Origin: a virus
Taxonomy: Duplodnaviria > Caudoviricetes
Strand: one strand, 5' to 3'
Length of the DNA stretch: 54,031 nt
IMG/VR virus record: IMGVR_UViG_3300021180_000001
Coordinates: 1-54,031 of that record
This document shows positions 8,415 through 54,031 of this stretch, one piece after another (the stretch's first letter is position 1; each line of letters opens with the position of its first letter). The position numbers were made by a program, and so were the translations under genes. The notes under the pieces are model-generated. The model was given only the letters and a program-made list of their open reading frames with translations, ran no database searches and was not told where the DNA came from.

Positions 8415-8426
8415 TAGGAGTATGAT

Positions 8427-8639: not shown

Positions 8640-8641
8640 TA

Positions 8642-9286
8642 ATGGCGAGGAGAGTAGTATTTACATGGCCTGCTGCAAGTGCGACAGGTGTAGCTGCCCT
8701 TCAAACATTAGTTGGAGCAGGCTCTTTATCTATTAATGGTGGATTAGCAATCCCAATTAATGGGATTTCTGCTCCAAACTTTGTTCAATTCTCTGGAATA
8801 TCTAGGACAATTTCTATAACTTCTACTAATGACCTATCAGCAGTTCATTTTACGATTACTGGAACTTATAGAAATGCGCCTCAGACTGAAACTCGTATTG
8901 GTCCAAATAATGCGACTGTTTTAACAACTGCATTATTCGATACGGTTACTAGTATTACTACAGATGCAGCAGCGGCCGCAGTTTCTATTGGAAGTGGAAC
9001 TACGGGTCAAACTCATTGGAAGAATAGTAATTTTCAATCGACAGTTGTAAATATGTCTATTCAGGTAGTAGTCACAGGAACAATCACTTATTCATTTATT
9101 ACAACATTAGATGATGTTCAGAAAATTGCAGCTCCTACAACTTTCTCACCTATCGCGGCAATGACAGCTGCTACGACAAACCAATTAGGAAATTATCTAA
9201 ACGCTACTGCTTATTCGGCTATTCAAATTACTGCCGCTACTACAGGTTCGTTAGTGTCAACCTTTATTGAGCAAGGAATATTGTAA
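8642..9286 (+). CDS. Virion structural protein
   Basis: Thr/Ala-rich beta composition; within the structural operon. Confidence 0.6.
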   Translation: MARRVVFTWPAASATGVAALQTLVGAGSLSINGGLAIPINGISAPNFVQFSGISRTISITSTNDLSAVHFTITGTYRNAPQTETRIGPNNATVLTTALFDTVTSITTDAAAAAVSIGSGTTGQTHWKNSNFQSTVVNMSIQVVVTGTITYSFITTLDDVQKIAAPTTFSPIAAMTAATTNQLGNYLNATAYSAIQITAATTGSLVSTFIEQGIL

Positions 9287-9489
9287 TGGGTAGGTCTAAA
9301 AAAATGTTTATCCAGGAAGCTATAAAACATCCAGGCGCTTTGCTCAAATCTTTGCATGTTCCAAAAGGACATAAAATTCCAGAGTCTAAGTTAAAAAAGG
9401 CTTCTCATTCTAAAAATCCTACTTTAAGGAAGAGAGCTATTTTAGCTGAAACCTTTAAAAAGCTTCCTAGGCATCATGGTCCGAGGTAA
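9286..9489 (+). CDS. Small basic phage protein (AIKHPGAL family)
   Basis: IQEAIKHPGAL...KIPESKL...KRAILAETF; coupled TAATG junction. Confidence 0.7.
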   Translation: MGRSKKMFIQEAIKHPGALLKSLHVPKGHKIPESKLKKASHSKNPTLRKRAILAETFKKLPRHHGPR

Positions 9490-9502
9490 GGATGTTAAAT
9501 AA

Positions 9503-10561: not shown

Positions 10562-10965
10562 CTTATAGACCAAAAGGTAAGCATGTTCGTATTAGCCAAT
10601 CAGCACCACAAGCATTGGGAATTTGTGACTATACGGGTTTTGTTTTTAATAGAAAAGATTTGGTTAGACAAATGGAATGGCGTGGAAATGCTCTCATATG
10701 GACAGGATTTTTAGTGGGTCGTCCTTATGTTGATGAGCCTAATGAGCAATTAAGGCCACCTATTTTACCTCCAGACCCAGTTCCCGTTATGTATCCTAGA
10801 TTGCCTTTTGAATCTACTGTTACTTGGTCAACAATTGGTAGTCCTACTTGGAGTACGTTGACTATTGATGCTTGGATTGATTGGTATGGAAGTTTTGACG
10901 GTATTCCGGCATTACCAGAAGACCAAAGATTACAAGCCCTACAAAATTATTATTGGGGAGCATAA
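10558..10965 (+). CDS. Conserved tail-module hypothetical protein
   Basis: ALGICDYTGF...MEWRG...DEPNEQL...PPDPVP; ATG 10558 overlaps the upstream stop. Confidence 0.65.
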   Translation: MTYRPKGKHVRISQSAPQALGICDYTGFVFNRKDLVRQMEWRGNALIWTGFLVGRPYVDEPNEQLRPPILPPDPVPVMYPRLPFESTVTWSTIGSPTWSTLTIDAWIDWYGSFDGIPALPEDQRLQALQNYYWGA

Positions 10966-31521: not shown

Positions 31522-32397
31522 ATGAAAGATGGTTTCTTAAAAGTTAGAAAAACAGGAATTGGCGGTAGCGATATCGGGGCAATCATGGGTGAAAATAAAA
31601 ATAAGAGCGCTTATGAAGTTTATTTAGATAAGACAGAGGAAGTAGAGATTCAATGTGAGGATAATGAGCCTATTGTGTGGGGAAATTTATTAGAAGATCC
31701 AATTTCCACACGATATGAACAATTGACTAATAAGGAACAAATTTTTGTAACTGATACTTTTAGGCATCCTAAATATCCATTTTTAATTGCTCACCCGGAT
31801 AGGATTATGCCTATAGAAAAAAAAGGATTAGAAATAAAAACTGCAGGATTTATGTCGAGGGACTTATGGGGAGAAAGTGGGTCTCAACAAATTCCAACTC
31901 ATTATTATCTCCAAATTGCTCATTATATGTTGGTTCTGGACTATGATTCTTGGGACATAGCTGTTTTGATAGGAGGACAAGAATTAAGGATTTATACCTT
32001 TGAAAGGCTTAAAGAAGCCGATGATATTATCTTAGAAAATGGTATAAACTTTTGGGAAAATCATGTTTTAAAGCGTAATCCTCCTACTTTGGAAAATATT
32101 AATTCAAAAACAGTTGAATTTCTTAAAAAAAGATATAAACTAGTTTCTCCTGAAATTGTTCCTTTTGGAGATAATCTTTTCCAATGGAGAGATATATGGC
32201 TAGAAGCCAAAGAACTTGTGAAACGATATCAAAATCAAGTTGATATTGCCCAGGCTCATTTGTTAGAAGCCATGAAGGAAGCTGGAAGAGGAAATTTTAG
32301 TGATGGGAGTTCTTTTGTTAGAAAATTGGTCAAGGCAAAAGAATATATGGTTAAAGAAAGAGAGTATGTACGTTTTGAATTTAGAAAAGGAGGCTGA
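31522..32397 (+). CDS. YqaJ-family (lambda exo-like) recombination exonuclease
   Basis: [21 protein letters not shown]...[15 protein letters not shown]. Confidence 0.93.
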
Positions 32398-32398
32398 A

Positions 32399-32644
32399 AT
32401 GTTAATTTTAACTAGGAATATAGGACAATCTATCAAAATTGGAGATGATATAACTGTAATGATTTTAGATGTCAGGGGAAAGCAAGTTCGAATAGGGGTA
32501 TCTGCTCCAGATCGGATAGAAGTTCATAGAGAAGAAATTTATAGGAGAATTCAAACGGATAAATTAAAGACGGCGGAAGATAAGGCTAAGGAATTAGCAG
32601 AGTTATATTTTCCGGTTCCAAATTCTAAACCATCTGATATTTAA
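32399..32644 (+). CDS. csrA: Carbon storage regulator CsrA/RsmA homolog
   Basis: [51 protein letters not shown]; AGGAGG RBS; true start 32399. Confidence 0.96.
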
Positions 32645-32653
32645 GGAAAAATT

Positions 32654-33547
32654 ATGGATAGTAGCAACATTGTAGATCTAAGTATCCCACCTAAAAATCT
32701 TAATAAAGGTTTTATGGTAATAGATTCTTTAGATAAGGCAAAAGAAGTGGCAGTTTTAATGATTGAATCTGGCATAATTCCAGATTTCCATCTTAAAGCT
32801 AAAAATCCAGTGGCTTCAGTTATTATGTGTCTTCAAAAAGGATTAGAAGTAGGATTATCTCCTACTCAATCTGTTCAGGATATTGCTAATATTAATGGTA
32901 GGCCCGTTGTATGGGGAGATGCCGCTTTAGCTTTATGTAAAGCAGCGCCTGATTATGAATATTGTCATGAAACATATGAGGAAAAAACTGAAACAGCAAT
33001 TTGCGAAGTTAAAAGAAGAGGAGAAGAAAAAGTTGTTAGAATTTTCTCTATAGCAGATGCAAAAACTGCTGGGCTTATAGATAAAAATATTTGGAAACTT
33101 TATCGAAAAAGGATGTTGCAAATGAGAGCTCGAGGATTTGCTCTACGAGATTGTTTTCCTCATATTTTAAAAGGATTACATTTAGCTGAAGAATATGTAG
33201 GAGTCAAAGAAGTAGAGATTAATCCAATAGAGAAAACTATTGAAATCAACGAAGGTCTTGTAAGATTTGAAAGCATTTCAAAAAATCCTCTAGAATCTAT
33301 TAAAGAAAGATTAGAAAGAAGAAAAGAGAGAGAGATGAATTCAACATTATTTACAGACCAGATTATTACTACAGAAACTCACGCAGAACTTATGAAATGG
33401 ATAGGTTATAAGAAGGTTCCATCTTCTGTAATTAATAAATGGTTGACTAAAGCGAATGTCGTTAATTTGAGTGATTTGACAGACATTCAAGCTCAAGCTA
33501 TTATAGAAATGCTAATTTCAAAGGAGGAAAATTATGAGCAAGACTAA
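32654..33547 (+). CDS. RecT/Redbeta-like single-strand annealing protein
   Basis: GLEVGLSP...INGRPVVWGD...WKLYRKRMLQMRARGFALRDCFP; paired with the YqaJ exonuclease. Confidence 0.85.
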   Translation: MDSSNIVDLSIPPKNLNKGFMVIDSLDKAKEVAVLMIESGIIPDFHLKAKNPVASVIMCLQKGLEVGLSPTQSVQDIANINGRPVVWGDAALALCKAAPDYEYCHETYEEKTETAICEVKRRGEEKVVRIFSIADAKTAGLIDKNIWKLYRKRMLQMRARGFALRDCFPHILKGLHLAEEYVGVKEVEINPIEKTIEINEGLVRFESISKNPLESIKERLERRKEREMNSTLFTDQIITTETHAELMKWIGYKKVPSSVINKWLTKANVVNLSDLTDIQAQAIIEMLISKEENYEQD

Positions 33548-36367: not shown

Positions 36368-36567
36368 TGAAGATAGTATGTCAAAATTGTCATTCATCAG
36401 ATTTTATAGAAGTATCTAGCACAATGAAATTGGAAGATTTTGTAAATGATTTCGAACATAAGTATTATACCTTAATCTGTAATAAATGTAAGATATATAC
36501 AGAGTTAGATGGTAAGGATAGAATTGAACAGCAAAAGGTAATAGGAGAGAAAAATGGTTCACTTTGA
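36367..36567 (+). CDS. Zn-ribbon protein
   Basis: CQNC...CNKC. Confidence 0.65.
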   Translation: MKIVCQNCHSSDFIEVSSTMKLEDFVNDFEHKYYTLICNKCKIYTELDGKDRIEQQKVIGEKNGSL

Positions 36568-37477
36568 AGAATTAAATGACGGAAGTAATAAAAGGAAAGT
36601 ATTATTTAATCAACAAAATTCTGTAAAATCGTTAATAAAAGACTTTATAGATGCCAGATGGCCTGTTCTGATAGAAGGTCCTACTGGAATAGGTAAGAAT
36701 TATCTTGTAGAAGTTCTTGCGGAAGAAGAATCTAAAAAAATTATCCGAGTAAATTTGAATGTAAATGTTTCTCAGGAAGACTTATGGGGCCAAAATGTCC
36801 TCATTAAAGATGGAGAAGCATCTATTATTAAATTTAAAGATGGACCTGTAGTAAATGCTATTAAGAATGGATATTGGCTTTTATTAGATGAAATAAATGC
36901 TGCATTGCCAGAAGTATTGTTTTCATTACATGCGTTATTAGAAAGAAATAAGAAAGAAATTTATGTTCCAATTTTACAAGATAATTTACAGGTTCACGAA
37001 GAGTTCAGAGTTATAGCAACTATGAATCCATCTGATGAATATTTTGGAACTAGAAGTCTAAATCAGGCATTCTTAAGTAGATTTATGATAGTTGAAATGG
37101 GAATTCCTTCATTATCAGATATGGCCATTATACTAAAAGAATTTTATACAGATAAAGAAATAGAGACGACTGTTTTTGTGTTGACAAAGTTAATAGGGGA
37201 GTTAAATAACTGGAAAATTAAAATGAATATCTCTATTAGAGATTTTGAAAAAGTTCTAGTTTTGTTGAAGACAGATGGATTGTATATATCAGATCACTTA
37301 GCCTCTATATTTAGAGATTATATTAGATTACTTCCAGAAAAAGCTCTAGAAACTTTTAATAAAAATAAATTTGAAAAAAATGAAAAAGAAATGGGAGCTT
37401 TAGGAAAATTCCTAAAAAATCCAGAAAAATATATAAGTTTGATTGAAATGCTTGAAAAATCTATGGAAAAATCATGA
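36554..37477 (+). CDS. MoxR-type AAA+ ATPase (CbbQ/NorQ/CobS-like)
   Basis: Walker A GPTGIGKN, Walker B LLLDEIN, FRVIATMNP, LNQAFLSRF. Confidence 0.9.
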   Translation: MVHFEELNDGSNKRKVLFNQQNSVKSLIKDFIDARWPVLIEGPTGIGKNYLVEVLAEEESKKIIRVNLNVNVSQEDLWGQNVLIKDGEASIIKFKDGPVVNAIKNGYWLLLDEINAALPEVLFSLHALLERNKKEIYVPILQDNLQVHEEFRVIATMNPSDEYFGTRSLNQAFLSRFMIVEMGIPSLSDMAIILKEFYTDKEIETTVFVLTKLIGELNNWKIKMNISIRDFEKVLVLLKTDGLYISDHLASIFRDYIRLLPEKALETFNKNKFEKNEKEMGALGKFLKNPEKYISLIEMLEKSMEKS

Positions 37478-39998: not shown

Positions 39999-40259
39999 AT
40001 GAGCGAAAATAAAGCAAATGAAAACAAAGAAATATTGAAAAAAAGATTGGTAGAATATTTAAATGAAACCATCAAACAAGTGGAAAATGATGAAACAGAG
40101 TATGTATTGGTATTAAAATCAGTATTAAAAGCAGGTGATAGTTGTATTCATCCTGTAACATGTTTTTTGAGAAACTCAGGTCCAAAAATGATGGCTGCTG
40201 TGATGGGATATCTTGACCTTATGAAGAATGAATTAATAGAACATTTAACTAAAGATTAA
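39999..40259 (+). CDS. Tandem paralog family member 1
   Basis: EYL..I.QV.NDE.EY...HP.TCFL...VMGYL. Confidence 0.7.
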   Translation: MSENKANENKEILKKRLVEYLNETIKQVENDETEYVLVLKSVLKAGDSCIHPVTCFLRNSGPKMMAAVMGYLDLMKNELIEHLTKD

Positions 40260-40274
40260 AGAGGAAAATTATTT

Positions 40275-40496
40275 ATGCATGGGAATAAAGAGAGAGTCTT
40301 AGAATATTTAGAGGAAGCTATTAGACAGGTGAAAAATGATGAAGTAGAATATATATTATTATTAAAATCATCTAATAATATTGTTCATCCTACAACATGT
40401 TTTCTTAAAGACACAACTTCGAAAGTTACGACTTCTGTCATGGGGTATCTTGAAATTATGAAAAATGACTTAATAGAATCTTTAATCAAAAACTAA
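40275..40496 (+). CDS. Tandem paralog family member 2
   Basis: Clear paralog of 39999. Confidence 0.7.
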   Translation: MHGNKERVLEYLEEAIRQVKNDEVEYILLLKSSNNIVHPTTCFLKDTTSKVTTSVMGYLEIMKNDLIESLIKN

Positions 40497-40511: not shown

Positions 40512-40808
40512 ATGATATATGAATTTCTTAAGGCCAAAATGAAAAAAAATGAACTTTTTATGGAAAATAGGAAAAAAGATGCTATAAAAGAGGTTATAAG
40601 TAAACTAGAATCTCTTATGAAAAAAGTTAAAAATAATAAGGTAAAATATGTAGTTATAATTGAAGATAATGATGAAGGAAATTCCGCAGAATTATTTACA
40701 ATTTCATGTAGTAAATTTGACTTGGGTAGTGCAATGGGGTTGATGGATGTATTAAAAAAGAGCATTATGAAAGCTATAAACAAAGGGTCTAAATATGAAA
40801 AAACTTAG
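40512..40808 (+). CDS. Tandem paralog family member 3 (diverged)
   Basis: KVKNNKVKYVVI...SAMGLMDVLK aligns with members 1-2. Confidence 0.6.
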   Translation: MIYEFLKAKMKKNELFMENRKKDAIKEVISKLESLMKKVKNNKVKYVVIIEDNDEGNSAELFTISCSKFDLGSAMGLMDVLKKSIMKAINKGSKYEKT

Positions 40809-40840: not shown

Positions 40841-41128
40841 ATGAAATACCCAAAACTTAGAAAAGATATAGATTGGAAAGAGGAGGATGGCTATATTGTA
40901 CTTTTTCCTATTTGTATTTATCAAAATTCTATTTTAAAAAAAGAACATCCACTCACTGAATTTCCATGCGATAACTGTAATCAACTTTGCTGGCTTACTC
41001 CTAATTCTGAAGAGCTTTCTCGTATTAATCCTGAAATGAAAAAATATTGTCTGACTTGTATGGATAAACTTGGTTTTCTTGATAATGAATTAGAAATTAT
41101 TGAAATATCTGAAAAAGAAGATGAATAG
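40841..41128 (+). CDS. Cys-rich (CxxC...CxxC) hypothetical protein
   Basis: CDNC, CLTC. Confidence 0.6.
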   Translation: MKYPKLRKDIDWKEEDGYIVLFPICIYQNSILKKEHPLTEFPCDNCNQLCWLTPNSEELSRINPEMKKYCLTCMDKLGFLDNELEIIEISEKEDE

Positions 41129-41196
41129 CATTACGGGTGGGGTTATAGTTGGAGCGGGAGTAAAAAATAATGGCTTACAAAAATAGAGGTAAATAA

Positions 41197-41376
41197 GTGA
41201 GCTATTATTTTCTTTTTCGCTTTGGTTGTGGTGAAGGAAATTACTTTAGTAATGGTGATGGATATGGAAATGGTTATGGTTATGATAGTGATTTATGGGT
41301 CTATGATGACAATGGCTTTGATAATAACAGTGGTGGTGATAATGGGTATGGAGATGGTGACATAGTATGCGATTAA
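41197..41376 (+). CDS. Gly-rich cassette G1 (59 aa, GTG start, not in ORF track)
   Basis: MSYYFLFRFG...GYGDGDIVCD; GAGGT RBS; ends in ATGCGATTAA. Confidence 0.6.
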   Translation: MSYYFLFRFGCGEGNYFSNGDGYGNGYGYDSDLWVYDDNGFDNNSGGDNGYGDGDIVCD

Positions 41377-41423
41377 ATTGTTCAAGAATAAAAAATAATG
41401 ATTTATAAAAGGAATATTGGCAT

Positions 41424-41633
41424 ATGCTATTAAATTATTTTGATGGCTTTGAATTTGTCTGGCGTATTGGTTGTGGTTATGACTATAGTGATATTAATTG
41501 GTTTGGCAATGGCTTTGGAAATGGTAGTGGGTATGGATTTCCCTTTAATAGTGGTGATGGTTTTGGGAATGGTGATTATGGAGACGGAATTGGCTATGAC
41601 TGTGATGATATAGTATGCGAAATGGCGATATAA
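41424..41633 (+). CDS. Gly-rich cassette G2
   Basis: MLLNYFDG leader; GxG repeats. Confidence 0.65.
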   Translation: MLLNYFDGFEFVWRIGCGYDYSDINWFGNGFGNGSGYGFPFNSGDGFGNGDYGDGIGYDCDDIVCEMAI

Positions 41634-41662
41634 TATGCAAAGCCATTCAAGAGTAAAAAATA

Positions 41663-42154
41663 ATGGCTTACAAAAAAGGTGAATCTGGTAATCCTTTAGG
41701 CAGACCTGCTGGCCTTGCTGAAATAAATTGGAAGGCGCTAAAAGCGTGTCCTGAAGTAATGGATGAGTTAATTTCCTTAGCTTTAGATAGAGATGTGGAT
41801 AATAAAATAAGAATAGCTGCCATGAAAGAGGTTTTAGATAGAGGAATGGGTAAATCTATTCAATCTATTAGACTTGAGGATAAAACGGTCCAAGAACCAT
41901 CTAAAATGGCTACGCAGGACTTAGAATTGATGCTTCAAGGTGGAATAGATATTCTTAAAGAACAAATACGCCAACAGGTTAAAAGTGAGATTTTAGGTAG
42001 TCAAATGATTATCGAAAAAAAAAGTATTACATCAGATAATAATGTGGTAAGCTACGAAGGTGATGTAGTTAACATAGAAGTTAACGAAAACGAAATGGGT
42101 GAAATGAAACATAGATTGGAATGTAACTTAACAGAGGAGAATAGTCATGAGTAA
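41663..42154 (+). CDS. terS: Terminase small subunit (probable)
   Basis: N-terminal YKKGESGNPLGRP and RIAAMKEVLDRGMGK motifs typical of this TerS type. Confidence 0.75.
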   Translation: MAYKKGESGNPLGRPAGLAEINWKALKACPEVMDELISLALDRDVDNKIRIAAMKEVLDRGMGKSIQSIRLEDKTVQEPSKMATQDLELMLQGGIDILKEQIRQQVKSEILGSQMIIEKKSITSDNNVVSYEGDVVNIEVNENEMGEMKHRLECNLTEENSHE

Positions 42155-42425
42155 AGAGATATTTATTGCAGTATTGGATAGAGGATGGGTATTCATTGGA
42201 ATAAGAGAAAAAGAAATTATAGAAGGAAAACACGTATGGAGATTAAAAAATTGTCATTGCATTAGGAGATGGGGAACTACCCAAGGAATTGGAGAAATCA
42301 GTATACATGGTCCTACCAAAGAAACAGTTCTCGATAAATGTAATGATTTAGAAATAGGATACAGGTCAGTTATTTTTTGGATAAAGTGTAATCAGGAGAA
42401 ATGGGAAAATATAATATGCAGTTAA
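42147..42425 (+). CDS. DUF6948-like protein, possible Sm/LSm-like fold
   Basis: IAVLDRGWVFIG...LKNCHCIRRWGTTQGIGEISIHGP; Sm1/Sm2-like hydrophobic pattern. Confidence 0.65.
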   Translation: MSKEIFIAVLDRGWVFIGIREKEIIEGKHVWRLKNCHCIRRWGTTQGIGEISIHGPTKETVLDKCNDLEIGYRSVIFWIKCNQEKWENIICS

Positions 42426-42601
42426 GCAGTCTAGATGGAAATGGCGGCGGCGACGGATATGATAATGGTGATGGATGGGGTTATGGTTGGAGCGATGGAC
42501 GAGGTCGTGGGGATGGATATAGCAGCGATTATGGCTGTGGTTACGGCAGTCTTTCTGGAAATGGTTATGGAGATGGTTGTGGCGAAATAGTATCCGATTA
42601 G
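42416..42601 (+). CDS. Gly-rich cassette G3
   Basis: MQLSSLDG; ATGCAGTTAA overlap with the DUF6948-like stop. Confidence 0.65.
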   Translation: MQLSSLDGNGGGDGYDNGDGWGYGWSDGRGRGDGYSSDYGCGYGSLSGNGYGDGCGEIVSD

Positions 42602-42656
42602 ATGAAGATAATTTTGCTATGGCCATAGTAATGACTGCTGTGGCTATAGAGCCTGA
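42592..42656 (+). pseudogene. Decayed Gly-rich cassette
   Basis: Junction mutated to ATCCGATTAG; frameshifted FCYGHSNDCCGY remnant. Confidence 0.5.
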
Positions 42657-42676
42657 CAGAAATGGAAAAATATAAT

Positions 42677-42940
42677 ATGAATTTAAGCTATTTTAATGGT
42701 TATGGATTTATCGGTGATGGTCGCTTTAGCGATAATAATGGCCATAATGATGGTTATGGCTTTAGTAATGGCGATGGATATGGGGACGGTAGTGGGTGTG
42801 GCGGCGATGGCTATGGTGGTGGTTTTGGATTTGGCTATGACTGCGATGGTTATGGAAATGGAAATGGGTATGGATATGGTTTTAGTAATGGTGATGGATG
42901 GGGTTATGGTATCGGTAATGGACCTGGCACATGCGATTAA
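42677..42940 (+). CDS. Gly-rich cassette G4 (alternative start 42662)
   Basis: MNLSYFNG...GTCD. Confidence 0.65.
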   Translation: MNLSYFNGYGFIGDGRFSDNNGHNDGYGFSNGDGYGDGSGCGGDGYGGGFGFGYDCDGYGNGNGYGYGFSNGDGWGYGIGNGPGTCD

Positions 42941-43143
42941 GCAGTTTAGATTATTTTTGTGATTTTCATATTAGTCACGAATATGGAAATGGCTATGGAT
43001 GTGGCAGTGATGGTTATGGATTTATCACTGGTCATGGATATGGCAGTCCTTATGGACCTATTTATGGAGATGGCTATGGAGATGGAAATTTCTATGGCAA
43101 CTGCCTTGGTGATGGGCATGGTAATGGCTTTGGATATATATGA
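42931..43143 (+). CDS. Gly-rich cassette G5
   Basis: ATGCGATTAA junction; MRLSSLDY. Confidence 0.7.
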   Translation: MRLSSLDYFCDFHISHEYGNGYGCGSDGYGFITGHGYGSPYGPIYGDGYGDGNFYGNCLGDGHGNGFGYI

Positions 43144-43364
43144 GCTTAAGCAGTTTAGATGAGTGGTTGCTGCATGGATATATTCAATATGGATTTAATA
43201 ATGGTGATGGACATGGTAATGGCAGTGGCTATAGTGGCGATGGCTGGGGTGGTGGTTTTCAATATGGTTTTGGCTGTGATGGTTATGGTTGTAGTTATTT
43301 CTTGGGTAATGGATATGGTTGGGGCAATGGTTGGGATGAAAATGTGGATATATTAAAGGAATGA
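43140..43364 (+). CDS. Gly-rich cassette G6
   Basis: ATGA overlap; MSLSSLDEW. Confidence 0.65.
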   Translation: MSLSSLDEWLLHGYIQYGFNNGDGHGNGSGYSGDGWGGGFQYGFGCDGYGCSYFLGNGYGWGNGWDENVDILKE

Positions 43365-43410
43365 TTACGGAAGTGATTTTGGACATAATATAGGATGATG
43401 GCGACATAGT

Positions 43411-43614
43411 ATGCGATTAGATAGTTTTAGTGATGGCTTTGGTGATGGTTATGGATATGCAAATGGCAATGGATATGGAAACGGTGACGATAATACCTGC
43501 TGTGGATATAAAGATTGTGATGGATATAGATATGGAGATGGTTATGGCAGTGGTAGTGGAAATAACTATGGGTTTAATTGTATAGAGGAAAATAACTTTT
43601 GCTTATGCGATTAA
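43411..43614 (+). CDS. Gly-rich cassette G7
   Basis: MRLDSFSD...LCD. Confidence 0.7.
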   Translation: MRLDSFSDGFGDGYGYANGNGYGNGDDNTCCGYKDCDGYRYGDGYGSGSGNNYGFNCIEENNFCLCD

Positions 43615-43907
43615 TCACTTTAGAGGACTGGTTACGGAATGATTATAATAAATATGGATATGGTAATGGCGATGGTTATGGTGGTGGATATAAGAGTAAC
43701 AGTGATTTCATTAATTATGATGGATACGGCGACGGAAGTGATTATGGGTTTGGTGACGGTGATGATGGAGATGGCGACGGCGATGGTTATGGATATTTAA
43801 ATGGTGATGGATATGGATATGGATGTGGTTATAGTTCCCAAGGCAATGGCTGGGGCGATGGAGACGAAACCGGATATGGAACTATATGTGGAACTCTATG
43901 CGATTAA
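43605..43907 (+). CDS. Gly-rich cassette G8
   Basis: ATGCGATTAA junction; MRLITLEDW...TLCD. Confidence 0.7.
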   Translation: MRLITLEDWLRNDYNKYGYGNGDGYGGGYKSNSDFINYDGYGDGSDYGFGDGDDGDGDGDGYGYLNGDGYGYGCGYSSQGNGWGDGDETGYGTICGTLCD

Positions 43908-44128
43908 TCTATTTCGATGAATTTGGTTTTGGTGATGGTTTTGACTTTGGTGGTGGCAGTGGCTTTGGCGATAATATTGGAGATGGTTGGGGCTTTGGTG
44001 ATGGATATGTGGTTATGAATAAAAGTTTTGGATGGGGCCTTGGTAACGGTTGTGGAGAAGATAATGGAAATGGCTATGGTGATAGTTACAATGGAGATAA
44101 CGGTGACGGAGACGGACCATGCGATTAA
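43898..44128 (+). CDS. Gly-rich cassette G9
   Basis: ATGCGATTAA junction; MRLIYFDE...GPCD. Confidence 0.7.
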   Translation: MRLIYFDEFGFGDGFDFGGGSGFGDNIGDGWGFGDGYVVMNKSFGWGLGNGCGEDNGNGYGDSYNGDNGDGDGPCD

Positions 44129-44358
44129 ATCATTTAGAATATTTTTGCTTTGACTTTTTCCAGGGCTATGGTTTTAAGGATAGTAATTGTCGTGGAAGTG
44201 GTCATGGAAATAGTCATGGAACTGGTTTTGGTGATGGATTGTGTTATGGCCATATTAATGGTAATGGTAATGGGTGCGGTGATGGTTTTAGTGATGGAAA
44301 TGGCTTTGGCGATGGTGAAAATGGAGATGACGGTGATGGAGATGGCGCATGCGATTAA
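44119..44358 (+). CDS. Gly-rich cassette G10
   Basis: ATGCGATTAA junction; MRLNHLEY...GACD. Confidence 0.7.
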   Translation: MRLNHLEYFCFDFFQGYGFKDSNCRGSGHGNSHGTGFGDGLCYGHINGNGNGCGDGFSDGNGFGDGENGDDGDGDGACD

Positions 44359-44597
44359 TTCATTTCGATGATTTTGGATGTGATGGTTATAGTTTTGGTT
44401 TTGGCGAAGGGTATGGAGTTAAAACTGGTAGCGGATATGGGGACGGTTGGAGATATGGTTATGCTTTTGGAAATGGTTTAGGGGGTGGTTATGGATATGG
44501 ATTTGGTAGTGGTGATGGTGGCATGGATCATGGTGATAGTGGTATGACTTATGGAAATAACTATGGCGATGGATATGGATATGGAGACTTAGTATGA
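44349..44597 (+). CDS. Gly-rich cassette G11
   Basis: ATGCGATTAA junction; MRLIHFDD. Confidence 0.7.
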   Translation: MRLIHFDDFGCDGYSFGFGEGYGVKTGSGYGDGWRYGYAFGNGLGGGYGYGFGSGDGGMDHGDSGMTYGNNYGDGYGYGDLV

Positions 44598-44818
44598 GAT
44601 TAAGTAATAATGGTTTTAATCTTAGCTCAGATTGTTTTTATGGATGGAGTGGTAGTGATGGAGCTGGTTGTGGTTATGGGTTTGGTAATGGCGATGGGTG
44701 GGGAGATAGCTGGGAAAGTGGTTTTGGTTTTGGGTATGGTTTTAATGATGGCGATGGTATGGTCTTGAATATGGCTTACGACAGTGGCAATGGAGATGCC
44801 AATATAATATGCGAGTAA
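44594..44818 (+). CDS. Gly-rich cassette G12
   Basis: ATGAGATTAA; MRLSNNGF...IICE. Confidence 0.7.
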   Translation: MRLSNNGFNLSSDCFYGWSGSDGAGCGYGFGNGDGWGDSWESGFGFGYGFNDGDGMVLNMAYDSGNGDANIICE

Positions 44819-45009
44819 GCAATTTAGATGGTGTTGGTAGAGGATATGGATTTAGTGACGGTGATGGTTATGGAGACGGATATGGCTTTGATGGTGATGG
44901 ATATGGCTGTGGCTATGGTTTTGGTGGTGATGGTTTTGGTAAAGGTCATCGATATGGCAATATTTTTAGCGATGATGATGGATATGATTATGAGGATTGG
45001 AACGGATAG
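44809..45009 (+). CDS. Gly-rich cassette G13
   Basis: ATGCGAGTAA; MRVSNLDG. Confidence 0.7.
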   Translation: MRVSNLDGVGRGYGFSDGDGYGDGYGFDGDGYGCGYGFGGDGFGKGHRYGNIFSDDDGYDYEDWNG

Positions 45010-45020
45010 GACAGCATAAT

Positions 45021-45257
45021 ATGAAATTAATATATTTTGAAAGTTTTGATTATTGTAGCTGTATTGGTTTCACTGGCTTTGGTGACGGATATGGGTATGG
45101 ATATGGTACTGGTGAGGGAAATGGGCTTAGTGAAGGTCTTACAAATATCTTTGGTAGTAATGGTGATTCATATCGGTATCGATATGGAATAGCATATGCA
45201 ACGCGAGATGGTGATGGTTATGGCATTGGCTATGGAAATGGTTTAGATGATGATTGA
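45021..45257 (+). CDS. Gly-rich cassette G14 (premature TGA; frame continues YGYGDIVCN to 45287)
   Basis: MKLIYFES leader at ATG 45021. Confidence 0.65.
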   Translation: MKLIYFESFDYCSCIGFTGFGDGYGYGYGTGEGNGLSEGLTNIFGSNGDSYRYRYGIAYATRDGDGYGIGYGNGLDDD

Positions 45258-45277
45258 TATGGATATGGTGACATAGT

Positions 45278-45425
45278 ATGCAATTAATCCATGGTGATGA
45301 TTATGGAGACGGTTATGGTGATGGCTGGGGAAATGGAAAGATTTGGGGAGATGACAACGATATGGAGATGATGATTATAGGCTTATATCTATGATAATGG
45401 AGATGGCGACATAGCATGCGATTAA
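45278..45425 (+). pseudogene. Frameshifted Gly-rich cassette G15
   Basis: MQLIHGDDYGDG... slips frame near 45360; the GDIACD tail is in another frame. Confidence 0.55.
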
Positions 45426-45694
45426 ATTATTATGATGGCTTTGGATTTGTTTTTGATTGGACTTGTGGCTATGGTTTTGTCGATGGCGATGGCTATGGCT
45501 TTGGTAGTGGGTTTATGGTTCTGAATAAATATTTTATGTGGGGTTATGGTAGCAGTTATGGAGAAGATAATGGAAATGGTTATGGCGATGGATGGGGAGG
45601 TAAACGTGGTTACGGAGATGGAAATGATAACGGTATTGGCGATGGTAATGGAAATGGATTTTGTGACCCAATAGAAATGGCTATAAGATATTAA
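45416..45694 (+). CDS. Gly-rich cassette G16
   Basis: ATGCGATTAA junction; MRLNYYDG...EMAIRY. Confidence 0.7.
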   Translation: MRLNYYDGFGFVFDWTCGYGFVDGDGYGFGSGFMVLNKYFMWGYGSSYGEDNGNGYGDGWGGKRGYGDGNDNGIGDGNGNGFCDPIEMAIRY

Positions 45695-45700
45695 TTTAAT

Positions 45701-45907
45701 ATGCGATTAAATGGCAGCATCTTTATCTTTGGATGTGGTTGGGGTAATGGATTTGGCTACGGCCATAATAATGGCAATGGTCATGGAAATGGTTGTACTT
45801 ATGATAGTTATGCCATAGGAAATAGCTGGGGTGACGGAAGTGGTTTGGGTGACGGCAATAATGACGATGGAAACGGGAATGGAGACGGAAGCACAACATG
45901 GGATTAA
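45701..45907 (+). CDS. Gly-rich cassette G17
   Basis: ATGCGATTAA; MRLNGSIF...TTWD. Confidence 0.7.
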   Translation: MRLNGSIFIFGCGWGNGFGYGHNNGNGHGNGCTYDSYAIGNSWGDGSGLGDGNNDDGNGNGDGSTTWD

Positions 45908-46134
45908 ATTATTTAGATTATTTTTTCTTTGATTTTTACCACGGCTATGGTTTTAAGGATAACCATGGCTATGGAAATAGTCATGGAAATGGCTTGGGTT
46001 ATGGAATTGATTATGGTCATATTAATGGTAATGGTTATGGGGGTGGCGATGGTTTTAGTGATGGATACGGTTTTGGCGATGGTGAAGACGGAGATGACGG
46101 TGATGGAAATGGTAATGGAGACGGTACATATTAA
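45898..46134 (+). CDS. Gly-rich cassette G18 (close paralog of G10)
   Basis: ATGGGATTAA; MGLNYLDYF. Confidence 0.7.
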   Translation: MGLNYLDYFFFDFYHGYGFKDNHGYGNSHGNGLGYGIDYGHINGNGYGGGDGFSDGYGFGDGEDGDDGDGNGNGDGTY

Positions 46135-46135
46135 T

Positions 46136-46312
46136 ATGCGATTAAATTATTTCCATGACTTTCACTTTATTGGTTCTGGGTATGGCTATGGATTTCATGG
46201 TGGTGATGGTCTTGGAAATGGTATGGGTTATGGAAATAGTGAGGGAGAAGGCTGGGGTGATGGCGAAGAAGATGTTGGTAATTGTGGTGGATGTGGTAAT
46301 ATGGAATGGTGA
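46136..46312 (+). CDS. Gly-rich cassette G19
   Basis: ATGCGATTAA at 46136; MRLNYFHD...NMEW. Confidence 0.7.
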   Translation: MRLNYFHDFHFIGSGYGYGFHGGDGLGNGMGYGNSEGEGWGDGEEDVGNCGGCGNMEW

Positions 46313-46324
46313 TTTGGAGGTACA

Positions 46325-46378
46325 ATGATTAGCGCGCTTATTTTGCTTATTTTTTTGCTTATAGCATGGAATGCATAA
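46325..46378 (+). CDS. 17-aa hydrophobic peptide MISALILLIFLLIAWNA
   Basis: Strong GGAGG RBS. Confidence 0.45.
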   Translation: MISALILLIFLLIAWNA

Positions 46379-46395
46379 TAGCATGGGGTGTATAA

Positions 46396-46560
46396 ATGAT
46401 GTTTAATTTTAGTAATTTTGAAATTATTATTGGTTGTATTCTTTTATATTTATGTATGTTCCATTTTATCATGTTACCTTTTATTAAGAAAAGATTTGAA
46501 CTTTCTGAGGCCAGAATTTCAGTTTTAGAATATAAAATTAAACAGATAATGAAAGAATAA
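46396..46560 (+). CDS. Small single-TM protein (54 aa, not in ORF track)
   Basis: IIIGCILLYLCMFHFIMLPFI followed by a short coiled coil. Confidence 0.55.
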   Translation: MMFNFSNFEIIIGCILLYLCMFHFIMLPFIKKRFELSEARISVLEYKIKQIMKE

Positions 46561-51857: not shown

Positions 51858-53429
51858 ATGGCGGAAGAGCTTTCCGCCCGTAGAAAAGCAGAAATATCCC
51901 TTCATCAGTTTACAAAACAAGCATGGCCACAAATAGAAGGTAATAGAGCATTTGTAGATGGATGGCATATCCAAGCTATTTGTGAACATTTAGAGGCTGT
52001 AGCAAGAGGAGAAATACGTAGACTTCTTATTAATGTTCCACCTAGAACAATGAAGTCTACTTTAGTATCTGTTGTGTTCCCAGCTTGGCTTTGGATAATA
52101 AGGCCCGAAGAACAATTCGCCTATGCTTCTTATTCGTCCGCTCTTTCCATGCGAGATTCTGTTAGATGCCGCCGTCTCATTTCTTCTCCCTGGTATCAAA
52201 CTCGTTGGGGTCATATATTTAATTTAGTTGGCGACCAAAATACTAAAAGTAGATTTGAAAATAACCAAATGGGATATCGCATTTCATTTGGCGTTAATTC
52301 TTCTGTTATTGGAGAAGGCGGTAATATCCTATGCGTAGATGACGGTAATAATGCCATGGATGGAGAATCCGAAACAGTTCGAGAAAGTACCAATCTCTGG
52401 TGGGATACAGCCTGGAGTATTCGCCTGAATGACCCGAAGACAGGCGCTTTAATTGCCGTTCAGCAACGTATCGATGAATTAGATTTATCTGCCCATATTA
52501 TGGAAAGTGATATTAATAAAGAATGGACTTATCTTATCCTTCCTATGGAATTTGAAAGCTCTAGACGAGCTAAAACGATTATCTTGCCTTCTACTAACGG
52601 AAAGATATGGCAAGACCCTAGAGAGAAAGATGGAGACCTTTTATGGCCAAATCGGATAGGGGAAAAAGAATTAAAACAACTTAAAGCAAGTCTTGGCTCT
52701 GAATATGCTATAGCCGGACAATTGCAACAAAGACCTGCTCCAGAAACGGGCGGTATAATGAAAAAATCCTGGTTCCAATTATGGAAACATCCTTCTCCAC
52801 CTAATATGTTTCAAGTATTACAAAGTTGGGATACGGCATTAGAGGCCAATGAAATGAATGCTTATTCAGCTTGTTCAACCTGGGGGCTGTTCTACGATGA
52901 GCATAAGGTTGTGAACGTCATACTTTTGGGGGTCTGGAGAGGTAGGGTCGAATATCCAGATTTGAGGAAGATGGCTAAAAGACTTTATGAAGATTATCGA
53001 GATGATGGAAGTATAGAAATAAAACCAGACGGTGCTCATATTCCTGATATTGTTTTAGTTGAATCTAAAGTATCAGGTATTTCGTTAGTCCAAGACTTAA
53101 GAAAAACGGGAATCATGGCTGTTAAATTTGACCCTAATAAATATGGGGATAAAATATTAAGGGTAAGAAAAATAACTCCTATATTAGAGGCGGGAAGAGT
53201 TTGGGTGCCTGCTAGACCTCCTGGCTATACAACTCTTAGAAGCTTTGCAGATACTTTGGTTCAAATGTGTTCTATTTTTCCCAATGCAGAGTCAAGAGAT
53301 TTAGTAGATAGCATGACTCAAGTACTGTTGAGATTGGTTTATGGTGGATATTTAACCCATCCTGATGATGAGCCAAGAGAATCTGGTTCTACTAAGCCTA
53401 AGCATACATTCTATGGAGTAGAAAAATAA
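51858..53429 (+). CDS. terL: Terminase large subunit
   Basis: INVPPRTMKS Walker A, ILCVDD Walker B, GQLQQRPAP, QSWDTA and DLVDSMTQ nuclease motifs. Confidence 0.95.
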   Translation: MAEELSARRKAEISLHQFTKQAWPQIEGNRAFVDGWHIQAICEHLEAVARGEIRRLLINVPPRTMKSTLVSVVFPAWLWIIRPEEQFAYASYSSALSMRDSVRCRRLISSPWYQTRWGHIFNLVGDQNTKSRFENNQMGYRISFGVNSSVIGEGGNILCVDDGNNAMDGESETVRESTNLWWDTAWSIRLNDPKTGALIAVQQRIDELDLSAHIMESDINKEWTYLILPMEFESSRRAKTIILPSTNGKIWQDPREKDGDLLWPNRIGEKELKQLKASLGSEYAIAGQLQQRPAPETGGIMKKSWFQLWKHPSPPNMFQVLQSWDTALEANEMNAYSACSTWGLFYDEHKVVNVILLGVWRGRVEYPDLRKMAKRLYEDYRDDGSIEIKPDGAHIPDIVLVESKVSGISLVQDLRKTGIMAVKFDPNKYGDKILRVRKITPILEAGRVWVPARPPGYTTLRSFADTLVQMCSIFPNAESRDLVDSMTQVLLRLVYGGYLTHPDDEPRESGSTKPKHTFYGVEK

Positions 53430-53771: not shown

Positions 53772-54031
53772 ATGTCATCTATTTTTCGCTTAAACCTAGA
53801 GGAAGAGCTAGGAGAACCGCCTATCAATTCTCCAGAAATGGTTCCTCTTGAGTCTATCGTTAAGACTGAAGACTTGCCAGATGGAACCTCTGTCTTTGAA
53901 ATCCAAGATATATTAGAAGGACAAGAAGAGCCAAAACCTTCTGAATTAGATTTTTATGCCAATCTAGCTGAAGAACTAGATGAAGGCACTTTAAATAGCC
54001 TTGCTATCCGTCTTATTGAAGAAATCAATGA
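53772..54031 (+). CDS. Portal protein, 5' part (continues at position 128 after the overlap)
   Basis: MSSIFRLNLEEE...FYANLAEELDEGTL...; in frame with the 267..2300 ORF. Confidence 0.88.
   Translation, partial: MSSIFRLNLEEELGEPPINSPEMVPLESIVKTEDLPDGTSVFEIQDILEGQEEPKPSELDFYANLAEELDEGTLNSLAIRLIEEIN
53905..54031. repeat. Terminal direct repeat, copy 2
   Basis: Identical to 1-127. Confidence 0.97.

Follow-up and report, generated by a model that had tools for sequence, protein, structure and literature searches.

A phage array of diverged glycine-rich mini-genes adjoining a DUF6948-family gene

Why would a phage devote almost a tenth of its genome to diverged copies of a single small gene? We examined this question in the IMG/VR record IMGVR_UViG_3300021180_000001 (Duplodnaviria; Caudoviricetes), the whole 54,031-nucleotide stretch of which was analyzed and is referred to here as the window. 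A first-pass annotation based on the sequence alone had reported a chain of about 18 intact and about three decayed Gly/aromatic/acidic mini-genes bracketing terS and a DUF6948-like gene, and this observation is confirmed by our analysis. The interpretation it offered, that of an expanded and diversified repertoire of low-complexity peptides with possible roles as sponges, decoys, condensate scaffolds or partners of the DUF6948-like protein, is supported only in part. Our results indicate that the array is an extreme expansion of a small, acidic, Gly/Tyr-rich gene that most other phages examined carry once, right behind a conserved small gene of unknown function, and this makes it a handle on a widespread gene pair that appears unstudied.

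Composition and organization of the array

The + strand carries 18 intact ORFs of 58–100 aa between 41197 and 46312, here designated g01 to g18. Their summed length is 4,098 nt (7.6% of the record) and the array spans 5,116 nt (9.5%). The 1,338 encoded residues consist of 30% Gly, 19% aromatic and 15% Asp plus Glu residues (D 12.6%, Y 10.2%, N 8.7%, F 7.1% and C 3.3%). The calculated pI runs from at most 4.05, the lower bound of the calculator, to 4.5, and the charge from −6.2 to −15.5. Gly follows a strict period of 2, Gly-Gly pairs at lag 2 being 2.26 times expectation and those at lag 3 only 0.36 times. This pattern is not due to chance: outside the array only one ORF in the 54 kb, a 1,223-aa protein, reaches the GxGxG threshold. 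GC skew is 0.45–0.67 in the five 1-kb bins from 41001 to 46000 and 0.465 in the next bin, which covers the last 312 nt of the array, compared to −0.30 to 0.40 elsewhere; C makes up 8.1% of bases at 42401–46312.

The copies share features at both ends. Sixteen of 18 start M-x-[LV], followed by a residue whose codon starts with A, the exceptions being g01 (GTG start, VSYYF) and g03 if read from 42401. Seven of 18 end in C-D or C-E followed by a stop, and two more keep an internal C-D or C-E and then read on. We found that the C-D-stop end and the M-R-L start are the same ten bases, ATGCGATTAA, read in two frames, and that the embedded TAA is what restricts the fourth leader residue to N, I or S.

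The array begins with g01 (41197–41376, 59 aa), which lacks the MRL leader, so that its start is uncertain, and which ends IVCD-stop; a stub of the terS-like start (MAYKNRGK-stop) lies just upstream. A decayed copy at 41367–41408, a 13-codon stub (MRLNCSRIKNNDL-stop), starts at the conserved junction after g01. It is followed by g02 (41424–41633, 69 aa, MLLNYFDG), which has an internal IVCE and then reads on for 3 codons. The array is next interrupted by two ORFs, at 41663–42154 and 42147–42425, which it flanks as had been reported. The first encodes a 163-aa protein for which the terS label is only weakly supported: the match to DUF5681 (E 6.1e-5, 24 bits) falls below the 27.5-bit cut-off, the only PDB hit is small terminase 6w7t at E 0.26, and no match was found in the phage collection. 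The second, the conserved first gene of a two-gene module, encodes the 92-aa DUF6948-family protein, with an RRWGTTxGIG core.

Following the DUF6948 gene, g03 (42401–42601, 66 aa) has its ATG inside the K-W codons of that gene, in the −1 frame and with AGGAG upstream; a second in-frame ATG at 42416 gives an MQLSSLDG leader. The 5′ end of g04 (42662–42940, 92 aa) repeats the last codons of the DUF6948 gene (by our reading of the DNA, QKWKNII-stop in that frame). Then follow g05 (42931–43143, 70 aa), with a 10-nt overlap with g04, and g06 (43140–43364, 74 aa), with a 4-nt ATGA overlap with g05. A second decayed copy, an orphan 3′ end (DDGDIVCD-stop) at 43394–43420, overlaps the start of g07 (43411–43614, 67 aa, 6 Cys). 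Overlaps of 10 nt with the preceding copy are found for g08 (43605–43907, 100 aa, MRLITLEDWL), g09 (43898–44128, 76 aa), g10 (44119–44358, 79 aa) and g11 (44349–44597, 82 aa). The closest paralog of g09 is g15 (72.6% nt identity), and that of g10 is g17 (81% nt, 72% aa identity). There is a 4-nt ATGA overlap between g11 and g12 (44594–44818, 74 aa), and a 10-nt overlap precedes g13 (44809–45009, 66 aa). The next copy, g14 (45021–45257, 78 aa), is cut short by a premature stop, and its old tail, YGYGDIVCN-stop, can still be read at 45258–45287. The third decayed copy (45278–45424) starts MQLIHGDDYGDGYG and is then frameshifted, its old end GDGDIACD-stop overlapping the start of g15 (45416–45694, 92 aa). 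The array is completed by g16 (45701–45907, 68 aa), g17 (45898–46134, 78 aa; 10-nt overlap with g16) and g18 (46136–46312, 58 aa), which starts 1 nt after the g17 stop.

Association with DUF6948 genes in other phages

The 42147 gene was assigned to the DUF6948 family by transitive homology. The window protein itself misses the Pfam model, but 22 of 49 aligned relatives hit PF22253 and the Atlas places it among DUF6948 clusters. The first-pass annotation's description of this protein as Sm-like is an inference. It had also stated that GxG-rich ORFs occur next to DUF6948-like genes in one or a few copies, and this proved correct. We examined 116 other loci that encode a DUF6948 relative (80 viral contigs, 34 genome contigs from many phyla and 2 metagenome contigs) for a (Gly-x)n ORF directly behind it: 8 loci have none, 99 have one, 6 have two, 2 have three and 1 has seven. 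The window scores 18 by the same criterion.

A GxGxG-rich ORF is present in 77 of the 80 viral loci and in 31 of the 34 genome loci. Pooled over those 114 loci, 138 such ORFs lie within 600 bp of the DUF6948 match, and only 12 lie more than 2 kb away, in 981 kb of far flank. Of 104 scorable loci, the partner lies in the −1 frame in 87, and a start lies within −30 to +20 nt of the DUF6948 stop in 99. The partner usually starts inside the last codons of the DUF6948 gene and encodes a short leader (often L-x-x-L-D-G) followed by 40–100 residues of G-[Y/D/N/S] repeats; g03 occupies the canonical partner position. The pairs are seen in cultured phages, namely Rheinheimera phage Barba (Barba5S gp020/gp019), Rhodobacter phage RcapNL (gp47/gp46) and MW202613, where the partner is annotated 'lamprin'. 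In the entries P0008 and P0033 a GYG tract is fused to a DUF6948 domain.

The gene neighborhood fits an early module. The window carries RecE-like and RecT-like genes at 31.5–33.5 kb. In the other loci, the named families matched by most upstream ORFs are CI/Cro/CII-type regulators (at most 6 of 100 scanned per family), with RecE/RecT at 2 each; downstream they are DnaB-like helicase (3 of 94), replication initiators (2) and a Lar-like protein (2). Most neighboring ORFs matched no listed family.

Maintenance and diversification of the copies

To determine if the open frames could have persisted by neutral drift, we simulated random substitution. A frame remains open with a probability of 0.23 per gene at 10% divergence and 0.07 at 20%, which predicts 4.1 or 1.2 intact genes out of 18; the closest pair is 19% diverged. 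The pN/pS ratio is 0.41–0.57 in the Gly frame and 0.72–1.48 in the +1 frame. Such values are only moderate, and alignments of low-complexity sequence bias this ratio. Codon usage for D, Y, N and F matches the rest of the phage, and the amino-acid pattern is kept in loci of 29% to 64% GC. No close relative of this phage was found that would have allowed orthologous arrays to be compared. The copies look maintained, the ORFs having been kept open by selection.

The array copies are more varied than single-copy partners. The x residues in GxG are Y (25%), D (23%), N (16%), F (9%), C (5%), S (5%) and W (4%) in the window, compared to Y (42%), D (35%), N (12%) and S (6%) in 103 canonical partners, and the entropy at this position is 3.15 bits compared to 2.05 bits. 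Gly content is 23–38% against a median of 50%. The description of an expanded, diversified repertoire therefore fits. The copies are, however, less Gly-rich and less regular than canonical partners, and the presence of three decayed copies and one truncated copy also fits relaxed constraint after duplication.

Origin and proposed role of the array

We consider it somewhat more likely than not that the explanation given here is correct as a whole, but its parts differ in standing. The analysis itself establishes that the array is a tandem expansion of the (Gly-x)n partner gene of a conserved two-gene phage module, that the duplicated unit ran from junction to junction, and that the 18 products are small, strongly acidic and more varied in sequence than the canonical partner. 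In support of the duplication unit, the g04 5′ end repeats the DUF6948 3′ end, all 17 ATG starts keep TAA or TAG in the −1 frame, and locus L014 shows the same thing by our reading of its translations. Each copy therefore carries the overlapping box ATG-NNN-TTA-A, read as C-D-stop in the upstream frame and as M-R-L in the downstream frame. Disorder of the products is partly inferred, since it rests on composition and on a low-confidence Atlas model of a single copy, g10 (pTM 0.17, pLDDT 0.38).

Expression and function, in contrast, are inferred. Most copies would form a chain of translationally coupled ORFs in one early or middle transcript, although there is no expression or protein evidence for any member and no sequencing run was listed. 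Only about 9 of 18 copies have an SD-like motif, against 32 of 40 other genes, so that translation of many copies depends on the inferred coupling. Our tentative proposal for function is that the peptides act through composition rather than a fold. They would be multivalent Tyr/Phe 'stickers' on a Gly/Asp polyanionic chain, made together with the small DUF6948 protein, and would bind or sequester, as decoys, a conserved host factor that handles nucleic acids, or scaffold an assembly, early in host takeover. The mechanism rests on composition and gene position alone, as no domain, fusion or neighbor names a target. Partnership with the DUF6948 protein has genomic support only, consisting of adjacency, overlapping frames and one fusion protein. 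Simple charge pairing with the acidic peptides is not supported, because the DUF6948 core is close to neutral (median charge +0.5, positive in 26 of 49). In this view, expansion would raise the dose and widen the range of variants, as in a gene accordion under host pressure, and the phage's own RecE/RecT-like genes could have driven unequal recombination at the short conserved junctions.

Alternative explanations

A potential concern is whether only the canonical copy, g03, works, the other 17 being slowly decaying by-products of slippage and unequal crossing-over in low-complexity DNA. The three decayed copies, the premature stop in g14, the reduced Gly content, the lack of an SD-like motif in about half the copies and the modest pN/pS are consistent with this possibility. 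Against it, 18 frames are intact where neutral substitution predicts 1.2–4.1, in a simulation that ignores indels; start codons and leaders are kept in all copies but g01; the +1 frame shows a higher pN/pS; and the copies, at 19% or more divergence, are old enough to have decayed. We therefore regard this alternative as unlikely, although it survives better than the others.

Less likely still is that the G-rich, C-poor strand, (GGN-NAY)n, acts as DNA or RNA, for example as two-tetrad G-quadruplexes, an R-loop or origin region, or a packaging signal next to the terS-like gene. The skew and low C content are consistent with such a role, GG-type quadruplex motifs occur at 13.9 per kb against 0.65 per kb in the rest of the genome, and in other phages the module tends to sit between regulators and replication genes. 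However, the motif density follows directly from the Gly codons and no GGG-type motif is present. In addition, each unit has a start codon, a conserved leader, an open frame and a stop, the repeat is conserved as amino acids in loci of 29% and 64% GC, and the partner start is positioned in frame relative to the DUF6948 stop in 99 of 104 loci.

A folded unit, such as a polyglycine-II bundle, a calcium-binding RTX-like beta-roll or a silk-like beta-sheet, serving as a virion or receptor-binding accessory is similarly doubtful. The composition is Gly-rich and Asp-rich, and a Gly-x period is the pattern of silk-like beta-sheets. The polyglycine-II bundles raised by the first-pass annotation require a Gly-x-x period, whereas the period here is 2, which is also not the 9 of RTX. 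No calcium-binding repeat family appeared among the Pfam hits at E up to 0.1, and the g10 model is of very low confidence. The genes lie in the early/DNA-metabolism region, far from the tail genes at 11–29 kb, and in other phages they follow regulators and precede replication genes.

A reading of the copies as precursors of secreted or modified peptides (RiPPs or Gly-rich bacteriocins), with the MRL leader as a recognition sequence, is very unlikely. Many small diverged ORFs do share a conserved N-terminus and a variable core with scattered Cys, and Gly-rich microcins have a loosely similar composition. However, the complete genome has no radical SAM, YcaO or C39 peptidase domain, the mini-proteins hit no Pfam, NCBIfam or PHROG family, the leader is only 7–8 residues with no double-glycine site, and the conserved neighbor is a small DUF rather than an enzyme or transporter. 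A DGR-target reading likewise found little or no support.

Finally, although the record is a metagenome assembly and its 127-bp terminal repeat looks, in our interpretation, like an assembler overlap, inflation of a short repeat by the assembler can be all but dismissed, because no two copies exceed 81% nucleotide identity over their length, leaving nothing to collapse or multiply, each copy has its own sequence, length and indels, the same proteins are recorded on 2 contigs, the longest 54,045 bp, and an independent 7-copy array exists in locus L043.

Genomic context of the array

We first examined the setting of the array within the viral record of 54,031 bp. The ends of the record (1-127 and 53905-54031) form a direct repeat of exactly 127 bp, which is a typical assembler k-mer overlap; by our reading the record is thus probably a circular assembly of 53,904 unique bp and not a phage with true terminal repeats. 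The few recognizable genes are a large terminase (terL) at 51858-53429, RecE-like and RecT-like genes at 31522-33547, and an AAA ATPase at 36554-37477, with long structural-size ORFs at 0.3-29.6 kb that matched no Pfam family. The array lies in the block of small + strand genes between the recombination genes and the terminase. Directly preceding it, at 40841-41128, is a 95-aa ORF with two CxxC pairs (zinc-ribbon-like, with a weak hit to PHROG 17337 at E 3e-4). Two tandem paralogous small genes lie just upstream, at 39999-40259 and 40275-40496 (52% identity, E 3e-28), and a third neighbor at 40512-40808 looks similar by eye but is not significant (E 18), so that this region of the genome seems prone to tandem duplication. 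A tRNA scan found none. A promoter and terminator scan was uninformative, giving 33 promoter-like sites against 41.5 expected and 4 terminator-like sites against 1.8 expected.

Structure of the array and of its junctions

The first-pass annotation had described a chain of small Gly/aromatic/acidic ORFs, and this description proved correct in nearly every detail. Its interpretation, that of an expanded and diversified repertoire of low-complexity peptides, is partly supported, the modes of action that it proposed being inferences from composition. Eighteen intact ORFs of 58-100 aa (g01 to g18) lie at 41197-46312. Their products are 30% Gly, 12.6% Asp, 10.2% Tyr, 8.7% Asn, 7.1% Phe and 3.3% Cys, with a net charge of -6.2 to -15.5. 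Gly recurs with a strict period of two residues, Gly-Gly pairs being found at 2.26 times expectation at lag 2 but at only 0.36 times expectation at lag 3. There are three decayed copies, consisting of a stub at 41367-41408, an orphan 3' end at 43394-43420, and a frameshifted copy at 45278-45424; in addition g14 has a premature stop, and its old tail is still readable.

The conserved leader and the conserved end of the mini-genes are one and the same DNA. Nine of the 18 starts read ATGCGATTA, and all 17 ATG starts keep T-A-A or T-A-G at bases 8-10. The box ATG-CGA-TTA-A therefore gives M-R-L-(codon starting with A) in the downstream frame and x-C-D-stop in the upstream frame, which explains why the fourth residue is N, I or S. 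Seven gene pairs overlap by these 10 nt, two overlap by ATGA, and three are 1-11 nt apart.

The 92-aa protein is a relative of DUF6948

To determine what the array derives from, we examined the 92-aa protein encoded at 42147-42425. The protein itself gave no hit to the Pfam model for DUF6948 (PF22253), even at E up to 1. It does, however, have many relatives. A tblastn search found 106 in viral contigs, with E 9e-22 to 9e-12 for the 80 loci that were kept; a further 34 were found in genome assemblies labeled with many phyla and 2 in metagenome contigs. Relatives were also found in 122 phage records, of which 115 are Rheinheimera Barba phages, the rest being Rhodobacter phage RcapNL, Eggerthella phages and uncultured phages. 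Of 49 aligned relatives, 22 matched PF22253 (best E 1.2e-8). The family shares an RRWGTTxGLG core and a near-invariant Trp close to the C-terminus; W42, G43, T44, G47 and G55 are invariant, and R40, R41, T45, G49 and W86 are conserved in at least 90%. The ESM Atlas places the window protein among DUF6948 clusters (feature score 0.95, TM 0.74-0.85), where it is modeled confidently (pTM 0.78). A profile search of the PDB with the DUF6948 alignment gave nothing significant (best E 0.036).

The neighboring gene at 41663-42154, labeled terS in the first-pass annotation, gave a match to DUF5681 at 24 bits, below the 27.5-bit cut-off, a match to PHROG 15261, a family of unknown function, at E 0.0015, and a match to the small terminase structure 6w7t in the PDB at E 0.26. 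This terS-like gene lies 9.7 kb upstream of terL.

DUF6948 genes are paired with a Gly-repeat gene

In the loci that encode a DUF6948 relative, a (Gly-x)n ORF follows the DUF6948 gene almost without exception. Such an ORF is held by 77 of 80 viral loci and 31 of 34 genome loci, and several of the misses are contigs that end at the match. Pooled over those 114 loci, 138 such ORFs lie within 600 bp of the match, and only 12 lie more than 2 kb away, in 981 kb of flank. Among 104 scorable loci, the partner lies in the -1 frame in 87, and a start codon in its frame lies within -30 to +20 nt of the DUF6948 stop in 99. In the window, the ATG of g03 at 42401 is formed by the codons for the conserved K-W of the DUF6948 gene, and by our reading of its translation the same is true of locus L014, a three-copy locus. 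The other 17 copies in the window keep a copy of this junction. Window leaders include MRLSSLD, MQLSSLDG and MRVSNLDG, of the L-x-x-L-D-G type; similar LTLDG, ATLDG and IQTLDG leaders occur in other loci, where a second leader type (GEDSQ / IDxEA) also exists.

Two metagenomic proteins, P0008 and P0033, fuse a TIGR02996-like N-terminus, a GYG tract and a DUF6948 domain. The two are near-identical and differ mainly in the length and sequence of the tract, which supports a functional link and shows that the tract evolves fast. We asked if the mini-proteins belong with the TIGR02996 'repeat-companion' proteins, which have a Y-A-D-W-L-E-E-x-G core. No hit to the NCBIfam model was obtained for g06, g08 or g10, and the relative P0003 reached only 15.5 bits against a 29.05 cut-off, although JGI labels the two fusions as TIGR02996 family. 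Several other GYG proteins (among P0003, P0009 and P0010) have a W-[LA]-x-x-x-G motif (W-L-A-D-N-G, W-A-A-Q-N-S-G, D-W-L-E-E-H-G) just before the repeats, like g06 and g08; the L-[DE]-[DE]-W-L in g06 and g08 is a resemblance only.

The gene pair occurs in viral contigs, in genome assemblies labeled with many phyla, including Proteobacteria, Actinobacteria, Bacteroidota, Planctomycetota, Chloroflexi, Cyanobacteria and CPR groups, and in cultured phages. Annotated examples are Rheinheimera phage Barba5S gp020/gp019, Rhodobacter phage RcapNL gp47/gp46, and MW202613, where the partner is annotated 'lamprin'. These phages have the same first gene family, with a partner, a Gly/Tyr/Asp repeat protein of 70-105 aa, directly downstream, the same overlapping -1 frame layout, and the same early-region setting. 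They differ from the window in having one copy of nearly pure G-[YDNS] repeats at about 50% Gly, whereas the window has 18 copies at 23-38% Gly with added F, W, C and H, placed on both sides of the DUF6948 gene. All are annotated as hypothetical.

Copy number and growth of the array

By one criterion applied to 116 loci, 8 have no partner, 99 have one, 6 have two, 2 have three, and 1 (viral contig locus L043) has seven. The window scores 18 by this criterion, a score made up of 17 of the 18 intact genes plus the frameshifted remnant, g18 being masked by an overlap rule. The L043 array (7978-10713 of the locus, from a 151-kb contig) consists of Gly/Asp/aromatic mini-genes of 64-88 aa, five upstream and two downstream of a DUF6948 gene. 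As in the window, they share a leader and a common C-terminal end, but the leader (M-x-K-L-x-I-D-G) and the end (P-S-D-W) differ from those of the window and the genes do not overlap. The L043 phage is unrelated, as apart from the DUF6948 gene it shares no ORF with the window at E 1e-5, and its array therefore looks like an independent expansion.

The 5' end of g04 repeats the last codons of the DUF6948 gene. By our reading, L014 shows the same thing, with remnants of the K-W-K-stop end preceding later copies. The duplicated unit therefore ran from inside the DUF6948 3' end to the end of the partner gene. A block duplication is visible as well, with g09-g10 resembling g15 and g17 at 73% and 81% nucleotide identity, respectively. 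In addition, a segment of about 30 nt containing a stop, an A-rich spacer and the first codons of the terS-like gene (M-A/I-Y-K) occurs three times, before g01 (about 41160-41196), before g02 (41385-41423), and before the terS-like gene itself (41640-41680). Unequal recombination at these short boxes, perhaps by the phage's RecE/RecT-like pair, is a plausible engine, but this is inferred.

The copies appear to be maintained as coding genes

We used several approaches to ask whether the copies are real genes. Random substitution drawn from the array's own base composition keeps a frame open with a probability of 0.23 per gene at 10% divergence and 0.07 at 20%, which predicts 4.1 or 1.2 intact genes out of 18; the closest pair is already 19% diverged. 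For the three best pairs, pN/pS is 0.41-0.57 in the Gly frame and 0.72-1.48 in the +1 frame, which is open only because of base composition, while the +2 frame is full of stops. Codon choice for Asp, Tyr, Asn and Phe matches the rest of the genome. On the other hand, constraint is moderate, only about 9 of 18 copies have an SD-like motif compared to 32 of 40 other genes, and no sequencing run or RNA data set was found listed for 41100-46400, so that these conclusions rest on sequence alone. We conclude that most copies are maintained coding genes, probably read as a translationally coupled chain.

The copies are diverged members of the partner family. In 103 single-copy partners the repeat part has a median of 50% Gly, and the x residue in GxG is Y 42%, D 35%, N 12% and S 6% (2.05 bits). 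In the window the period of two is kept, but Gly is 23-38% and x is Y 25%, D 23%, N 16%, F 9%, C 5%, S 5% and W 4% (3.15 bits). The common x residues are one base apart (NAT, NGT and TTT codons), and 92% of the 79 Ser codons in the 18 mini-genes are AGT or AGC, as compared to 31-33% in other genes of the phage. The + strand at 42401-46312 is only 8.1% C. The codon pattern indicates that the variety arose by point mutation of the repeat. Because every common x residue is one step from an NAT or NGT codon, we considered whether the mini-genes are targets of a diversity-generating retroelement (DGR), but the genome has no match to the reverse transcriptase family RVT_1 and this possibility was rejected.

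Sequence and literature searches

Searches of Pfam, PHROGs and NCBIfam with the mini-proteins gave nothing beyond compositional hits to TrAA12 and ser_rich_anae_1, all far below their cut-offs. The tested members of both genes of the pair, including canonical partners from cultured phages, hit no PHROG family at E up to 0.001, apart from two borderline hits of one partner (E 0.0012 and 0.0083) to families of unknown function. A profile of the 18 copies gave 3 hits among 5.8 billion proteins, 2 of them the window's own, and 12 hits among 1.84 billion representatives, 3 of them the window's own; low complexity and large-database E-values limit this route. A DNA similarity search against phages gave only short low-complexity matches in 4 records. 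In a search for close relatives of this phage, the window's own DUF6948 protein found none in viral contigs and 2 distant ones in metagenome contigs. In the literature searched, no paper mentions DUF6948, PF22253 or TIGR02996, none of those found with the motif GYGDG concerns phage as judged by title, and wider keyword searches gave nothing on this gene pair as judged by titles and the starts of abstracts.

Predicted mode of action and alternative explanations

The Atlas model of g10 has a pTM of 0.17 and a pLDDT of 0.38, which suggests disorder for that copy. In other phages the pair sits in early regions. The named families matched by most upstream ORFs are CI/Cro/CII-type regulators (at most 6 of 100 scanned per family), with RecE and RecT at 2 each; downstream they are DnaB-like helicase (3 of 94), replication initiators (2) and a Lar-like restriction-alleviation protein (2). 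Most neighboring ORFs matched no listed family. In RcapNL the pair lies in the leftward operon after the CI-like repressor. The labeled host range is very wide, which argues for a conserved target or a generic physical action.

Our working model, which we hold only tentatively, is that of a multivalent acidic/aromatic chain made together with DUF6948, which would sequester or scaffold a conserved factor that handles nucleic acids early in infection, with the array providing dose and variety. The origin of the array by duplication of the partner gene and the maintenance of most open frames are findings of the sequence comparisons; by contrast, expression as a coupled chain, the recombination engine, any binding to DUF6948 or to a host factor, and the function itself are inferred. 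The model rests on composition and gene position only, and charge complementarity between DUF6948 and the acidic peptides was looked for and not seen. A bolder possibility, which we regard as unlikely but not excluded, is that DUF6948 and its (Gly-Tyr/Asp)n partner represent a new, widespread class of phage early effector that works through a disordered, polyanionic, aromatic repeat instead of a fold. Such an effector could, for example, mimic single-stranded DNA or the acidic-aromatic tail of host SSB, or build a condensate. This phage would then have amplified and diversified it into an 18-member, translationally chained repertoire, a phage 'gene accordion' tracking a variable host target or defense.

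Among the alternatives, the one that survives best, although we consider it improbable, is that most copies are decaying duplicates. A nucleic-acid element is less likely still; GG-type quadruplex motifs are 21-fold enriched, but this follows from the Gly codons. A folded Gly-rich structure is similarly doubtful. Polyglycine-II bundles, such as those of the snow-flea antifreeze protein and the T-even gp38 adhesin, have Gly at every third residue, whereas the lag-3 ratio here is 0.36, and the g10 model is not that of a confident compact fold. RTX beta-roll calcium-binding repeats have a nonapeptide GGxGxDxUx period, whereas Gly-Gly pairs at lag 9 are found here at 0.61 times expectation and no such family appeared among the Pfam hits at E up to 0.1. 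A role as RiPP or bacteriocin precursors was rejected, as the complete genome has no match to Radical_SAM, YcaO or Peptidase_C39, the three classes searched. An assembly artifact is very unlikely, because the copies are at most 81% identical.

We consider the module and its 18-fold diversified expansion to lie outside any described kind of system, with the caveat that the mechanism is inferred. Pfam lists the first gene as a DUF, and the pair has no named function despite its wide occurrence. Its layout is unusually rigid, and the position of the partner's start codon inside conserved codons of the first gene argues for a joint function. The 18-copy array shows that the repeat protein can be amplified and varied while staying under selection, which is the pattern expected of a gene in conflict with the host. 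If the peptides act by composition, this would add a disordered-repeat mode of action to the phage host-takeover and counter-defense proteins known to us, which are folded. The question is open to direct test, because Rheinheimera phage Barba and Rhodobacter phage RcapNL carry the single-copy form and are in culture.

Comparison with other systems

Beyond the phage gene pairs, the resemblances are analogies and not memberships. Gene accordions and multigene families of large eukaryotic viruses involve tandem amplification of a host-interaction gene followed by divergence of the copies, but no phage example built from disordered peptide genes is known to us. The high glycine-tyrosine keratin-associated proteins of mammals are small Gly/Tyr-rich proteins with scattered Cys, are encoded by tandem multigene arrays, and act as a matrix around a partner protein. 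One relative, P0010, gave a near-threshold hit to Pfam KRTAP (PF11759) at 21.0 bits against a 21.1 cut-off; however, the likeness is in composition only, with no homology, and the phage peptides are strongly acidic and very probably cytoplasmic.

The Tyr/Gly low-complexity domains of FUS and hnRNPA proteins (PMC9067507) likewise have aromatic residues spaced by Gly, with Asn, Ser and Asp. Sticker-and-spacer phase separation and kinked beta segments are features of such domains. Disorder, suggested here by the single model of g10, and multivalent, composition-driven binding, including binding to nucleic acids, would be shared under our model. Those domains are parts of large RNA-binding proteins and are neutral or Arg-rich, whereas the phage peptides are free-standing, 58-100 aa in length, with a net charge of -6 to -15.

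Small acidic anti-defense proteins that mimic DNA offer a further comparison, the likeness being that both are small, very acidic phage proteins. AcrIC9 of phage RcapNL is 79 aa with a pI of 3.96 (PMC7391736), and RcapNL also carries the DUF6948 pair. AcrIC9 is described as lying in a three-gene unit whose second gene has an HTH domain (PMC7391736); examination of the RcapNL locus (L128, 21331-22164) indicated that this description fits gp33-gp31, not gp47/gp46, although this assignment is our inference. The DNA mimics known to us are folded, whereas the mini-proteins are low-complexity repeats.

Variation was also found among the DUF6948 loci themselves. Some relatives carry two DUF6948 domains in tandem in one protein (locus L074, 9815-10546; proteins P0020, P0021 and P0032). 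Locus L040 is the locus that shares the most genes with the window, having five further ORFs in common besides the DUF6948 gene (267-2300, 2316-2942, the terS-like gene, terL and 53772-54032 of the window). At 9672-12397 of L040, the DUF6948 gene follows an ORF that looks HTH-like by eye, and is followed by two degenerate, Gly-poor partner-like genes (leader MEIII) and, 1.1 kb on, by a 341-aa ORF with patatin-like motifs by eye.
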